A stretch of 64,000 nt of DNA, taken from the IMG/VR virus record IMGVR_UViG_3300035670_000009, positions 139,911 to 203,910 of that record; one strand, written 5' to 3'. This stretch comes from a virus. Lineage: Duplodnaviria; Caudoviricetes. A program made the position numbers and the translations under genes. Position 1 is the first letter of the stretch. Every line of letters starts with the position of its first letter. This document shows positions 36,384 through 51,383 of the stretch, piece by piece. A model generated the notes under the pieces. The model was not told the origin of the DNA. It saw nothing but the letters and a program-made list of their open reading frames with translations, and ran no database searches.

Positions 36384-37193
36384 TCAATTCTTGGGTACGA
36401 GGATGTACGGCTTTCCGTTGATCACAATGGTGCCGCCCAGCTCAACTGAAGTGTCTTTGAACTTGGAATACGGCACCTTACGTTTGCCGTACAGCTCCTG
36501 AATCTCGCGGACATCGCCGTCCTGTGGTTCAGTAACGTTCGGGTCGTAGTAAGGGGCCATAAGGTTGCCGTTGGCCAGGTGCGGCAGACCCAACGCATGA
36601 CCAAGCTCGTGGCAAATCACAGCCACAGCCATATTGAAGTTCCAGTGCTCAGCTTCGTCGTACATCTGGTCAAGCTGAATGCCCTCATGTACGCCGCAGG
36701 GCAGCTCGCTCCAGGCAAGCGTGCCGCCCTTGCTATCCAGGCCGTGCTTCTGCCCTTTTCCCGATCGCGCCAAAATATTGGCTTTCGTTGGATCCTCGAC
36801 GGGCTCGGGCTCGATGTTGCACACGCGCGCCCACTGGCTGAACGCAATATCAAACGCCTGCTTAGCCTGAGCCGTCGTGATGCCGGGCAGCACAATGTCG
36901 GGATGGTAAGTGATCGCCTTGTGCGGCCACTTGCACTCCGTGTCGCCTGCCGAAAAGTTGAAATCGGGCAGGCCGCAACGACGACGTTCAAGCACATGCG
37001 CCGTGGTTTCGTCGACGCGGCCATCCGGATCCAGCCCGTGAAAACGCTGGTACTCGCGAATGGCGCGCGTCAATTCCGCGCCTTTAATCTGCCGAACCTT
37101 TGCCCAGGTTTTAGTACCGAAGTATCCGAACGCGAATAGTTTTCGAAGGATCTCTTCGGTCGGCAGAACGTGATTTGATGGCATCCTTGCCAT
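36384..37193 (-). CDS. Matrixin (M10/MMP-like) zinc metallopeptidase with PG-binding-like prodomain and cysteine switch
   Basis: AIREYQRFHGLDPDGRVDETT (PG-binding-like), RRCGLPD (Cys switch), KW...ITY, HELGHALGLPH, Met-turn LMAPYY and IQELYG. Confidence 0.9.
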   Translation of the reverse strand: MARMPSNHVLPTEEILRKLFAFGYFGTKTWAKVRQIKGAELTRAIREYQRFHGLDPDGRVDETTAHVLERRRCGLPDFNFSAGDTECKWPHKAITYHPDIVLPGITTAQAKQAFDIAFSQWARVCNIEPEPVEDPTKANILARSGKGQKHGLDSKGGTLAWSELPCGVHEGIQLDQMYDEAEHWNFNMAVAVICHELGHALGLPHLANGNLMAPYYDPNVTEPQDGDVREIQELYGKRKVPYSKFKDTSVELGGTIVINGKPYILVPKN

Positions 37194-39373: not shown

Positions 39374-40507
39374 TTATTTCCTTCCGGGGGAGAACTGCGC
39401 CAGCACGTCGTCGCCGTAACGAGCGATGACCTGGTCAATGAGGTTGGGGCGCTCCGTCTGGCCGCGAATGGCTTTCAGTGCAAGCTGGTGCCGATAGCGC
39501 GGGTCAAGCTGCGCCCGCCACATTTTGTGATTTCGATCGCTGTCGCGGATGAAGTCGCCCCGACGCTTGGCCTCGGTGAGCTGGCTCTTGATGTTCTCGA
39601 AAACCGGCTTGCTGGGGTCGTAAGGAATCGGCTTCTGGATAGCGAGCGGGTCAAGCATCTGTCGCCCCTGATCGAGGTAGACGCTGCCGCCGTCCTTCTC
39701 TAGTTGCTGGATTTTTTTGTAGTAGGCCGGTTCTTCGGACAAGTGATCCTTGGCAATTTCTTTGGCGACTTCTGCATTGTTCGTGTGTTCGCGCTCATGC
39801 TTCTTGCCTTCTGCCAAGGCCTCCGGTGGAAACTGCTCATCGGGCACATGATCCGCCTGGCCGCCGGGCAAGACGTCCAGGACTTTTTCAGCCGCCGCCT
39901 TCAGCTCGCCCCGGCTGGTGGCCGAGTCAAACTTGCTAACGTTGTTGTTACCGAGCACCTTCGCGCGTCGGACAGCCACCGTGATGTGGAACTGATGATC
40001 GCCATTGGGCAGAGCTGACAAACCGTAGCTCTTACGCAAAGCGGCCAACTCTGGGCTGGCGACTTGAATCGCCCAGACGCGGCTGATGCCGTCGATGTTC
40101 TTAGGCGCGAGTTCTTTAACGGGACCAAGGGCGTAGTGAAAATTGTGCCCGCGCTCGTTGATCTTGTTCGCGCCAATTTTGCTGACCTCGTCAGCGGTCA
40201 TCACCGAAATGTGCGCATTCAGCAAATCTGGCTTTACGTCTGGAACGTTAAGGGCACCAGCAAGTGGTAATTCAGCGCCTGGAGCAGTCATGGCGTCGAA
40301 TACGCCGCGCACCAGGGCATTTGGGACCGACAGCAACAGCCAGCCGCTTTTAGAGACGTACAGCCGCCCGGCGAGATAGTGATTGGTCGTCGCCGCGGCA
40401 CCGGTCTTTGAAAGCCAACCGGCCGCGTTTCCAACGGCATAGGCCGGATGAAGCTTGAAACCGGTCGCGTCCCACGCCAAAGGATCGAGAATGGAAAACC
40501 CGTCCAT
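39374..40507 (-). CDS. 2H phosphoesterase fused to an EHT..DHL..YY domain
   Basis: Two H-x-(S/T) motifs (NAHISV, QFHITV) with intervening SPELAALRKSYGL. Then EGKKHEREHTNNAEVAKEIAKDHLSEEPAYYKKI. Confidence 0.75.
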   Translation of the reverse strand: MDGFSILDPLAWDATGFKLHPAYAVGNAAGWLSKTGAAATTNHYLAGRLYVSKSGWLLLSVPNALVRGVFDAMTAPGAELPLAGALNVPDVKPDLLNAHISVMTADEVSKIGANKINERGHNFHYALGPVKELAPKNIDGISRVWAIQVASPELAALRKSYGLSALPNGDHQFHITVAVRRAKVLGNNNVSKFDSATSRGELKAAAEKVLDVLPGGQADHVPDEQFPPEALAEGKKHEREHTNNAEVAKEIAKDHLSEEPAYYKKIQQLEKDGGSVYLDQGRQMLDPLAIQKPIPYDPSKPVFENIKSQLTEAKRRGDFIRDSDRNHKMWRAQLDPRYRHQLALKAIRGQTERPNLIDQVIARYGDDVLAQFSPGRK

Positions 40508-40517
40508 GGCCGCTACC

Positions 40518-41081
40518 TCATTTCAACTGCGAGGGCGGAGACACGGACAAATCAGCGGGCTGCGCGGGTTTCTTGACGGCATCCTGCAGCTCGGCCACCG
40601 GCGTAATGAACGCGAAGAACTGTGGCGCGCCGAAGTGGAGAACGCTGCCGACGCTCACCAGGCACATGACCGGCAACTTGTCTTTGCGCAGCACCGGATA
40701 GACCGCGCGGTAATGAATGCCTTCAATGCCGCGATCGCTTTTGGTCCTGGCCCGGTCGAGGCCCTGAAGATGCTTGTCGCGCAAATAGTCTGGAATAATC
40801 TGCGACAGGCCGTGATCAATCAATTCGCGCTCGGTGTAGCCAGTAATCTCCCAGACTGCGTCGTTGGCAAACAAAACGTCGCCTGATCGGTCACAAACAA
40901 TTACGGCGTCGGCCGAATAGTTCATTATCTTGATCAGCTCGCTTTCGCGCGCGTTCAGCGCAGCGGCGTAACGCCAAAGCAAAATGGCGCACAACGCCGA
41001 CGCAGCCACAGCCCACCACGCGGCGGCGCTGCGCAGTTTTCCAGCGCGTGGTTCAACCATCATGGCGGCGAACATAGTCAT
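40518..41081 (-). CDS. Membrane-anchored stand-alone PAS-domain protein (FixL-like PAS)
   Basis: Start reassigned to ATG 41081 (ATGA coupling). One TM, then SADAVIVCDRSGDVLFANDAVWEITGYTERELI...IIPDYLRDKH...FFAFI. No output domain. Confidence 0.85.
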   Translation of the reverse strand: MTMFAAMMVEPRAGKLRSAAAWWAVAASALCAILLWRYAAALNARESELIKIMNYSADAVIVCDRSGDVLFANDAVWEITGYTERELIDHGLSQIIPDYLRDKHLQGLDRARTKSDRGIEGIHYRAVYPVLRKDKLPVMCLVSVGSVLHFGAPQFFAFITPVAELQDAVKKPAQPADLSVSPPSQLK

Positions 41082-41215
41082 GGCCTGGTTGATGTGCCGG
41101 ATTGCGCACCCGCGACGGCGCGAGCGTGACTGGCTACTGCCGCCGCGGTCGACAGCAACGCCAATGAACAGAGCAGCGTCGCCACCCATGCCGCGGCAGC
41201 CAATGTGTTTCGCAC
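41078..41215 (-). CDS. 45-aa hydrophobic peptide between holin and PAS genes
   Basis: GTG 1 nt after the holin stop. MRNTLAAAAWVATLLCSLALLSTAAAVASHARAVAGAQSGTSTRP. Its TGA overlaps the PAS ATG. Below the ORF-track cutoff. Confidence 0.55.
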   Translation of the reverse strand: MRNTLAAAAWVATLLCSLALLSTAAAVASHARAVAGAQSGTSTRP

Positions 41216-41561: not shown

Positions 41562-41597
41562 CCTACTGGCCCCCGGCGCGCTAATTGTGCTGCTGAT

Positions 41598-41840
41598 ATA
41601 CCGCAAGCTCCTGGGATCCCCTACCCACAGGTCCGGCCCTGGAAAACCAGGGTTTAGCGGTGACTTACAAAGGCAAATGTTTGCCCCGTGTGGCATTCAC
41701 CGCGCCTCCAACCGTGTTCACGCCATGCTCTGACCACGGATCCAGCTACCCCGGCAACTTCCATGTTGCCGAAATAGCGCCTAACCGATCGGCCACCACG
41801 ACCAGCTTGCGATATTTGCGCACTTTCGCGCGCAAATACT
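41598..41840 (-). ncRNA. Candidate structured non-coding RNA / leader, family unrecognised
   Basis: Nested helices found by eye: 41804-15 with 41598-609, a 14-bp hairpin at 41745-78, 41697-703 with 41657-63, 41637-52, and a GAAA-capped stem at 41813-38. Mismatches are G-U wobbles on the minus strand. Confidence 0.65.
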
Positions 41841-41952
41841 AATTTATCACGTCGCGACAGGCGGGCGCAAAGCGGGATGTCAAAGAGCAAACAACGGCTG
41901 ACTTATTACAAATAGCGCGAAACGGCAGATTCGACCAGCCCCAAAAAGAGGG

Positions 41953-51257: not shown

Positions 51258-51311
51258 GACGCAAGCCCCAGCGAATGCGCCTGATCCGTCAAGCGCGGCG
51301 TAAGACAAAAG

Positions 51312-51383
51312 CTGCCCGACCAGGATTCGAACCTGGAACCTCACGATTAACAGTCGCGCGCACTACCGTTGTGCTATCGGGCA
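51312..51383 (-). tRNA. tRNA-Asn (GTT)
   Basis: Full cloverleaf TGCCCGA/TCGGGCA, D-arm GCAC/GTGC, anticodon arm CGCGA-CTGTTAA-TCGTG, T-arm CCAGG-TTCGAAT-CCTGG, discriminator G. CCA is not encoded. Confidence 0.95.

Follow-up and report, generated by a model that had tools for sequence, protein, structure and literature searches.

A pseudoknotted six-helix RNA with a CsrA-type hairpin at the head of the 2H-phosphoesterase operon of uncultured jumbo phages

The window analysed in this study is the whole stretch of 64,000 nucleotides taken from positions 139,911 to 203,910 of the IMG/VR virus record IMGVR_UViG_3300035670_000009; these 64 kb are the final part of the 203,910-bp record, on which direct terminal repeats are found. 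The source is an uncultured jumbo phage with a G+C content of approximately 58% and a multisubunit RNA polymerase about 32% identical to those of the closest cultured phages, Salmonella phage Arash and Vibrio phages D69/D181. An earlier note made from the letters of the window had pointed to a long gene-free gap at positions 41562-41952. The gap was borne out, and a folded RNA some 220 nt long is encoded on its minus strand (window 41816-41597). It is followed on the same strand by genes for a holin-like protein with three transmembrane segments (3-TM protein), a hydrophobic peptide, a membrane PAS protein and a 2H-SAK phosphoesterase with a DUF5661 domain (Table 1). We report here the fold of this RNA, the family to which it belongs and its place as leader of the 2H-phosphoesterase operon, together with the evidence that connects it to a CsrA protein encoded by the phage.

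The region almost certainly encodes a real structured RNA. The minus strand of 41845-41590 had a folding energy of -114.9 kcal/mol versus -91.0 +/- 4.6 kcal/mol for dinucleotide shuffles (z = -5.2, 0/200), and so folds better than the shuffles with which the earlier note had proposed to compare it. The plus strand of 41590-41845 gave z = -5.6, yet at -96.3 kcal/mol it was 19 kcal/mol weaker than the minus strand, because three U-G pairs of a 14-bp hairpin turn into A-C mismatches; in the note, too, the imperfect pairs had been seen to be G-U only on the minus strand. The first homologues were 12 related viral loci reached through the downstream 3-TM protein, and the region was present upstream of the 3-TM gene in 12/12. 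Two independent sequence patterns yielded 65 and 69 viral stretches, and a third gave 22 further members in metagenome contigs, all belonging to the same tight clade, plus 5 chance matches. Two covariance models were used, R1 for the core family and R2 broadened to include diverged members; with R1, exactly one copy of the RNA was found in the phage genome. The core alignment comprised 93 model matches, 61 of them distinct sequences, in which 98.4% of the pair cells were canonical and 40 of the 56 pairs had changed on both sides. Of 500 control shuffles 0 reached these values, and pairing was 35-44% when the partners were displaced by 1-3 columns. In addition, distant jumbo phages found through a 632-aa structural gene that bears CsrA-type hairpins (34-44% protein identity) hold full-length, diverged copies of the RNA, scoring 29-64 bits with R1 and 72-107 bits with R2. 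In the mixed alignment of 18 sequences 96% of the cells were paired, with compensatory changes in 52/56 pairs. Covariation among homologues, which the earlier note had recommended as a check, supports the RNA both in the core family and among diverged members.

A reading without RNA, with the stretch being either a small protein gene or a site acting at the DNA level, is scarcely credible. It could appeal to the 78-aa open reading frame (ORF) at 41654..41890 and to the good folding of the plus strand, but that frame is free of stops in only 2 of the 61 distinct members, the length of the stretch among homologues varies modulo 3 with indels that are not multiples of three, and neither Pfam nor PHROG gave a match for the ORF. 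The G-U pairs and the compensatory changes, moreover, fit an RNA of the minus strand. The coding frame that the earlier note had named as a possible explanation consequently does not account for the region, and the protein-gene reading is already contradicted by the non-conservation of the ORF across the 61 members.

The RNA consists of a helix, P1, which closes a junction of six hairpins, P2 to P7 (Table 1). Several of the helices that had been folded by eye in the earlier note were backed by covariation: its outer stem is P1, its 14-bp hairpin (41778-41745) is P3, its GCGGTGA/TCACCGC helix (41703-41697 with 41663-41657) is P5, in which the inner helix GGGGC/GCCUU is supported too, and its CCCTGG...CCAGGG hairpin is P6. 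The GAAA-capped 5' stem is also real and covaries, but it is restricted to the window's own subclade, where it is inserted between the -10 box and P1; in the other clades this hairpin is lacking and the -10 box abuts P1. The proposed helix of TGGATCC (41744-38) with GGATCCCA (41619-12) had to be abandoned, since its 5' side varies without compensation among members (GGAACC, GGUUCC, GUCC, CGUC) while its 3' side is invariant. P2 (41803-41787), P4 (41739-41712), P7 (41631-41610) and a pseudoknot were absent from that note. The new pseudoknot is formed by 5 bp between the P2 loop GUGGC (41796-41792) and the P5 internal loop GCCAC (41694-41690). All of its 305 cells (305/305, 61 sequences) are canonical and three of its five positions covary, and at least 8 different complementary sequence pairs were found in the 18 diverse members, including GUGGC/GCCAC, GGCAC/GUGCC, GACAC(U)/(G)GUGUC, (A)GGUGC/GCACC(U), GGCGC/GCGCC, AGGUGU/ACACCU and AGCAC/GUGCU. 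The stem of P7 varies in a similar way (CCUGUG/CACAGG, CUCGCG/CGCGAG, CCUGCG/CGCAGG and others), and its loop holds a GGA that is present in 61/61 members and is the second invariant GGA of the RNA besides that of P3. Across diverse members the most durable nucleotides are GGUUAG in J2/3, GGnGG in J4/5, GGAC in J6/7 and the P7 loop AGGGGAUC.

Two further pairings were tried and rejected, that of the P7 loop with J3/4, in which variation is uncompensated, and a long-range one between the 3' arm of the 5' hairpin and the linker, which is not kept in L002. A tertiary pair between alignment columns 118 and 158 (A-U to U-A) is an unproven candidate that separates just two clades. It must also be mentioned that the letters of P2 plus J2/3, GUCGUGGUGGCCGAnUGGUUAGG (23 nt, 41780-41802, minus strand), are near-identical to the 5' acceptor strand and D-arm of a tRNA-Cys(GCA) gene found in unrelated phage contigs (loci L027, L055, L056 and L069). 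They are paired differently in the RNA than in tRNA-Cys, and the likeness could be a coincidence or a trace of origin.

Table 1. Elements of the structured RNA, its promoter and the operon that follows it, in positions of the window.
Feature	Position	Strand	Remarks
Upstream box TCTTTGACA(A/T)	41878..41887	-	45-60 nt before the -10; in most family members
Extended -10 element TGATAAATT (TAAATT + upstream TG)	41841..41849	-	Position conserved across the family
5' GAAA-capped hairpin	41813..41838	-	Only in the window's own subclade; compensatory changes within it
P1	5' strand 41804..41815 with 3' strand 41598..41609	-	10/12 pairs changed on both sides
P2 hairpin	41787..41803	-	Stem covaries; loop GUGGC (41796-41792) in pseudoknot
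J2/3 GGUUAGG	41780..41786	-	Near-invariant, distant members included
P3, long variable hairpin	41744..41779	-	Tip (41766-41757) is a 3-bp stem with nGGA loop
P4 hairpin with conserved GGUCAG	41712..41739	-	Every basal pair covaries in the broad family
J4/5, invariant GG-n-GG	41704..41711	-	
P5/P5a	41657..41703	-	Compensatory pairs: P5 6/7, P5a 5/6
P6, variable hairpin	41637..41652	-	7/7 pairs compensatory
J6/7, conserved GG-n-C	41632..41636	-	
P7 hairpin	41610..41631	-	Loop AGGGGAU(C) near-invariant; stem covaries
Linker with ribosome-binding region and start codon	41559..41597	-	ATG 41561-41559; second ATG 41555-41553
Holin-like 3-TM protein, 114 aa	41217..41561	-	First operon gene in the core clade
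Hydrophobic peptide gene, ~50 aa	41078..41230	-	Most loci have a ~50-aa ORF behind the 3-TM gene
Membrane PAS protein	40518..41189	-	Pfam PAS; insert in some lineages only
2H-SAK phosphoesterase + DUF5661 protein	39374..40507	-	Pfam PF22547, PF18905

The RNA represents a previously undescribed family, found neither in Rfam 15 nor in the papers searched. Searches with Rfam 15 at gathering thresholds or E <= 10 gave no match for the RNA, be it in the window or in 12 diverse members, other than spurious short ones in the region at E <= 10, with no ribozyme family among them, and ARAGORN revealed no tRNA or tmRNA in the RNA region, in agreement with the earlier note, which had seen no such signature and had inferred an undescribed phage RNA or a riboswitch-like leader. 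The sole match in the window by Rfam gathering threshold or ARAGORN is a tRNA-Asn(GTT) gene at 51311-51383 (minus strand; Rfam span 51312-51383). GenBank phages gave no match, either by DNA search with the region or by protein search with the 3-TM protein. A pattern scan of bacterial genomes returned 17 matches, all of them GC-rich chance matches and none with covariance-model support, so no bacterial or prophage copies were found with that pattern. The upstream GT25 protein, when used as a handle, yielded no related loci. As far as we have searched, the family is confined to uncultured jumbo phages of approximately 170-230 kb, and the literature consulted on phage RNAs, riboswitches and CsrA in jumbo phages contains no description of it.

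With respect to its transcription, a -10 box lies a few nt upstream of P1 in every clade (TGnTAAAAT or TAAACT for the core family, TATAAT-like for distant members), and therefore P1 begins at or beside the 5' end of the transcript; in the window the predicted transcription start is at about 41836 +/- 3. Of the promoter suggested in the earlier note, the -10 element TAAATT is conserved in position but the -35 element TTGCGC is not conserved. With 3 matches in the window, which is chance level, the extended -10 motif is rare there and hence not a generic phage motif, and exact CTTTGACA occurs in the window once, at the upstream box 41878-41887. Many relatives have an inverted repeat, e.g., UUUUAUCCGCC...GGCGGAUAAAA, between the upstream box and the -10. 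No terminator was found between P1 and the next gene. The distance from the RNA to the start codon ranges from 11 to 59 nt (20-59 in the core family and 11-38 in distant members), and in L264, L266 and L268 the RNA stands 18-28 nt before the 2H-SAK gene itself. In the window the start codon of the first gene sits in the CsrA-site-like sequence AGGAUGU. Two closely spaced starts (M-x-M) behind a small stem-loop, as in Lambda-type holins (S107/S105, with the sdi stem-loop), are not a family trait: MFM is limited to the window and a handful of near relatives, and the first gene of other members starts MLDE, MGDE or MSDE. The description of the element as a riboswitch-like leader is still plausible in view of its place, which is promoter-proximal, without a terminator and 11-59 nt from a start codon, but no conserved expression platform was found.

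The genes of the operon differ in how constantly they accompany the RNA. The core clade has, behind the RNA and in this order, the 3-TM protein, the ~50-aa peptide and a 2H-SAK (plus NUDIX) and DUF5661 protein. The 3-TM protein has no match in Pfam; a language model places it near Phage_holin_3 families (0.90-0.91), to be taken as no more than a lead. The PAS gene is shared with G011 and missing from most loci. In distant phages the 3-TM gene is absent or swapped for that of a coiled-coil/transmembrane protein, and 2H-SAK orthologues with 40-52% identity are found downstream of the RNA. The RNA was located directly upstream in 80/80 loci fetched through the 3-TM protein, and upstream on the same strand in 78/80 loci fetched through the 2H-SAK alignment, the two others being L340, a contig cut 49 nt upstream, and L274, an AT-rich outlier. 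Since the 2H-SAK gene is constant across diverged phages and the other genes are optional, the RNA is the leader of the 2H-phosphoesterase operon and not specifically of a lysis cassette. The claim that it controls lysis genes must accordingly be corrected, because the holin-like, peptide and PAS genes are optional inserts.

The AlphaFold model of the 2H domain had a mean confidence (pLDDT, predicted local distance difference test) of 85, and its Foldseek matches were all 2H enzymes (LigT-like, CPDase, Usb1, and poxvirus and phage phosphodiesterases of cyclic GMP-AMP (cGAMP) or oligoadenylate). They were weak (E 0.02-0.5, TM 0.33-0.38), and hence no subfamily can be assigned. Searches of the PDB sequences with the 2H protein and with its profile gave nothing relevant. 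Most 2H-SAK/DUF5661 proteins of the core clade carry a NUDIX domain too (about 600-650 aa; L010:3440-5392, L099:6001-7839), and the 377-aa version of the window is without it. The orthologues of two distant phages, at L259:2226-2783 and L260:529-1113, have lost both catalytic HxS/T motifs, with GIVV and SIVV replacing HISV and HITV, and the RNA is still upstream of them. At L149:1996-2067 a tRNA gene is inserted just 3' of the 3-TM gene, inside the operon.

The connection with CsrA arises from the tip of P3, which is a CANGGANG hairpin with the invariant pattern C-A-n-G-G-A-n-G, a 3-bp stem and a 4-nt loop. Like a CsrA/RsmE site it is a short hairpin whose loop holds the GGA, and it fits the consensus (A/U)CANGGANG(U/A), with variation at the N positions; the GGA is present in 60/61 core members and 16/18 diverse members. 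The first base of the loop may be G or U, so the conserved feature is nGGA and not a GNRA loop. The phage itself encodes a CsrA of 69 aa outside the window, at G000:C1:104897-105106 (minus strand; locus L212:1438-1647). This protein matches PF02599 with 78.6 bits and the PHROG 'CsrA-like regulator', and retains the N-terminal MLVLSRK and the RNA-binding residues V-x-R-x-E. CsrA is encoded in 17 of the 18 near-complete genomes that carry the RNA, namely the phage itself, all ten other near-complete core genomes, G011-G014, G017 and G020, and some of them encode two. In G013, G014, L313 and L337, csrA lies directly after the 2H gene and is convergent with the RNA operon. Neither the RNA nor CsrA nor 2H-SAK occurs in Arash and D69, the two cultured phages closest to this one. 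In addition, several of the first genes after the RNA bear a CANGGANG-like site at their start codon, and a second GGA at the Shine-Dalgarno (SD) sequence or start is found in the window's clade (AGGAUGU/GGGAUGU), L313, L321, L337, L267 and L269.

Hairpins of the same type are found elsewhere in the phage. Two of them in tandem, UUCACA-CGGA-UGUGAA and GGACA-CGGA-UGUCC, cover the SD sequence and AUG of the 632-aa gene, which is also outside the window (G000:C1:127406-127450, minus strand; locus L223, relatives L224-L256). The start-codon hairpin of this gene is kept down to 34% protein identity with compensation in the stems (UGCCA/UGGCA, GCUCA/UGAGC, ACCA/UGGU). Further nGGA hairpins over start codons are seen on the minus strand of the window at 37178-37193, ~16538, ~13162 and ~51258. 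One of them, AUGGCAAGGAUGCCAU, lies at the start of an MMP-like peptidase gene (36384-37193). These start-codon hairpins may make up a regulon of the phage CsrA. The genome-wide count of CANGGANG is not above that of shuffles (110 vs 127) and is strongly strand-biased by coding, which makes it unusable as a regulon statistic.

Taking these observations together, the explanation that we favour is that the RNA is a cis-acting leader which controls the 2H operon and is read by the phage CsrA; from comparison of the sequences this is quite possible, though by no means assured. The RNA would be the first transcribed element of the operon, launched from its own extended -10 promoter. Its fold is locked by the pseudoknot of the P2 loop with the P5 internal loop, and the junction strands GGUUAG, GGnGG and GGnC together with the P7 loop AGGGGAU probably make a compact core. 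A dimer of the phage CsrA would then bind the apical CANGGANG hairpin of P3 and a second GGA site, either that of the P7 loop or that of the start codon, and in this way might set the translation or the stability of the genes located 11-59 nt downstream. Sensing of a small molecule may be a further role of the ornate core.

There are several observations that weigh against a CsrA-read leader. In G015, a carrier of the RNA, no CsrA scored above threshold, and the P3 GGA has been lost in L264 and L266, the former being among the phages in which csrA is adjacent. The GGA at the SD sequence or start is missing in large subclades, e.g., CAGGCGGUUA. Composition alone would give 5.6 GGA per RNA and 6.3 are present, so that true conservation is limited to two GGA sites. 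The folding of 42 leaders in search of an anti-SD partner gave no conserved alternative pairing that would hide the ribosome-binding site, the predicted partners being inconsistent among members. Furthermore, the co-occurrence of the RNA with csrA falls largely inside one phage lineage and is not phylogenetically independent, and the RNA, with its six-helix junction, its pseudoknot and some 70 invariant positions, far exceeds what CsrA binding needs.

In other explanations CsrA has no part or a different one. A small-molecule riboswitch, whose junction core would bind a metabolite with CsrA uninvolved, is rather unlikely. Its ligand would plausibly be a nucleotide-derived substrate of the 2H (+NUDIX) enzyme, such as a 2',3'-cyclic or cyclic-oligonucleotide signal, or ADP-ribose or a derivative, and binding would stabilise P1 and modulate initiation at the start codon close by. 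The location in a 5' untranslated region (5' UTR), the strong covariation, the invariant junction nucleotides and the aptamer-like domain all suit such a reading, as do the strict tie to one enzyme gene across diverged phages, the union of 2H and NUDIX domains in many members and, where the linker has 11-20 nt, a ribosome footprint that would abut P1. However, the leaders show no recognisable expression platform, with neither a terminator nor consistent SD partners in the 42 that were folded; linkers differ in length and sequence and other genes may intervene; the RNA is kept in L259 and L260 although the catalytic histidines of the 2H enzyme are replaced; and there is no similarity to any Rfam riboswitch, nor does the sequence name a ligand. 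That the RNA is itself the functional product, either a ribozyme or an RNA subunit or substrate of the 2H enzyme that is co-transcribed and then released, is unlikely. Analogies would be the action of Usb1 on U6 small nuclear RNA and the Y RNAs of the rsr-rtcBA RNA-repair operon. The ornate pseudoknotted fold with its many invariant unpaired nucleotides is what might be expected of it, and P1 joins the 5' end of the transcript to the 3' end of the domain in a closed, stable module. Its constant partner, too, belongs to an enzyme family that acts on RNA 2',3'-cyclic phosphate or 2'-5' ends, the fold matches being LigT, CPDase and Usb1, all weak. Against this, neither a terminator nor a conserved processing site was found after P1, a gene on the same strand always follows immediately and no ribozyme family of Rfam was matched.

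A trans-acting decoy of the CsrB/RsmZ type, titrating host or phage CsrA instead of regulating its own operon, could make use of the consensus hairpin and the second invariant GGA loop, and nearly every carrier genome has a csrA, which is adjacent in four lineages; nevertheless it is very unlikely, with just two conserved GGA sites, a GGA count not above composition, no terminator of its own and an architecture unlike the serial GGA hairpins of Csr/Rsm small RNAs (sRNAs). We regard as extremely unlikely a promoter-proximal RNA that acts on the polymerase, by antitermination like HK022 put, or that protects the 5' end of the mRNA. Its position directly after the promoter, at the operon head in every member, would be the proper one, but no downstream terminators that need read-through were identified, Rfam gave no similarity to put or EAR, and both the size and the conservation of the RNA go far beyond the needs of a 5' stabiliser.

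Phage-encoded CsrA proteins are known from surveys (PMC8450108), and the literature that we searched names no RNA partner of such a protein. The RNA described here is a concrete and strongly conserved candidate for such a partner, and the same phages offer a set of other candidate CsrA-type start-codon hairpins. It would also link an uncharacterised 2H/NUDIX enzyme module of phages to control at the RNA level, and as a new, well-defined ornate fold of six helices plus a pseudoknot with deep covariation it is suited to structural work. These proposals are directly testable in vitro without a cultured host. A more ambitious idea, which we consider decidedly improbable, is that the RNA, the phage CsrA and the 2H (+NUDIX) enzyme constitute one phage regulatory module sensing a nucleotide-derived signal, e.g., a host immune or stress second messenger that is destroyed by the 2H/NUDIX enzyme. 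In such a module the RNA would show or hide its CsrA site according to the signal, switching on the enzyme and the membrane proteins, and if this were true, a riboswitch would here act via a CsrA encoded by a virus, and a phage CsrA would for the first time have a cognate RNA partner.

With regard to other candidate phage RNAs, a published catalogue (PMC10690425) lists 8,495 candidates for structured RNAs; its source is IMG/VR as here, and covarying intergenic phage RNAs are likewise among its entries. Its candidates measure 29-151 nt and therefore the full domain of about 220 nt is not described there, although a fragment of it might be listed. The large ornate RNAs of Rfam, raiA, ROOL, GOLLD and OLE, share with this RNA the multi-helix junctions, the pseudoknots and the many invariant unpaired nucleotides, and they also occur in phages with function unknown; none of the Rfam models matches the RNA, which is smaller than ROOL, GOLLD and OLE, strictly promoter-proximal and tied to one operon. 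Lysine and cobalamin riboswitches are likewise located in 5' UTRs and are built on a P1-closed multi-helix junction with long-range loop contacts. The RNA is of their size class, but it has no sequence or profile similarity to them and no identifiable expression platform or ligand.

Among the RNAs of the Csr/Rsm systems, the decoy sRNAs CsrB, CsrC and RsmX/Y/Z resemble it in their GGA hairpin loops and their genomic partnership with csrA. They differ from it in that the phage RNA has two conserved GGA loops instead of many, lacks its own terminator, has a complex tertiary fold and is always followed by genes. The mRNA leaders bound by CsrA/RsmE (glgC, pgaA, hcnA, moaA) differ in that the putative site of the phage RNA is embedded in a conserved, pseudoknotted six-helix domain of 220 nt, its second site at the ribosome-binding region is not shared by all members, and CsrA is encoded by the phage. 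In the moaA leader, the CsrA sites sit on the Moco riboswitch. As in these leaders, the phage RNA presents a short (A/U)CANGGANG(U/A) hairpin with the GGA in its loop upstream of the start, with another such site on the start codon in some members, and a protein of the CsrA family is encoded in the same genome.

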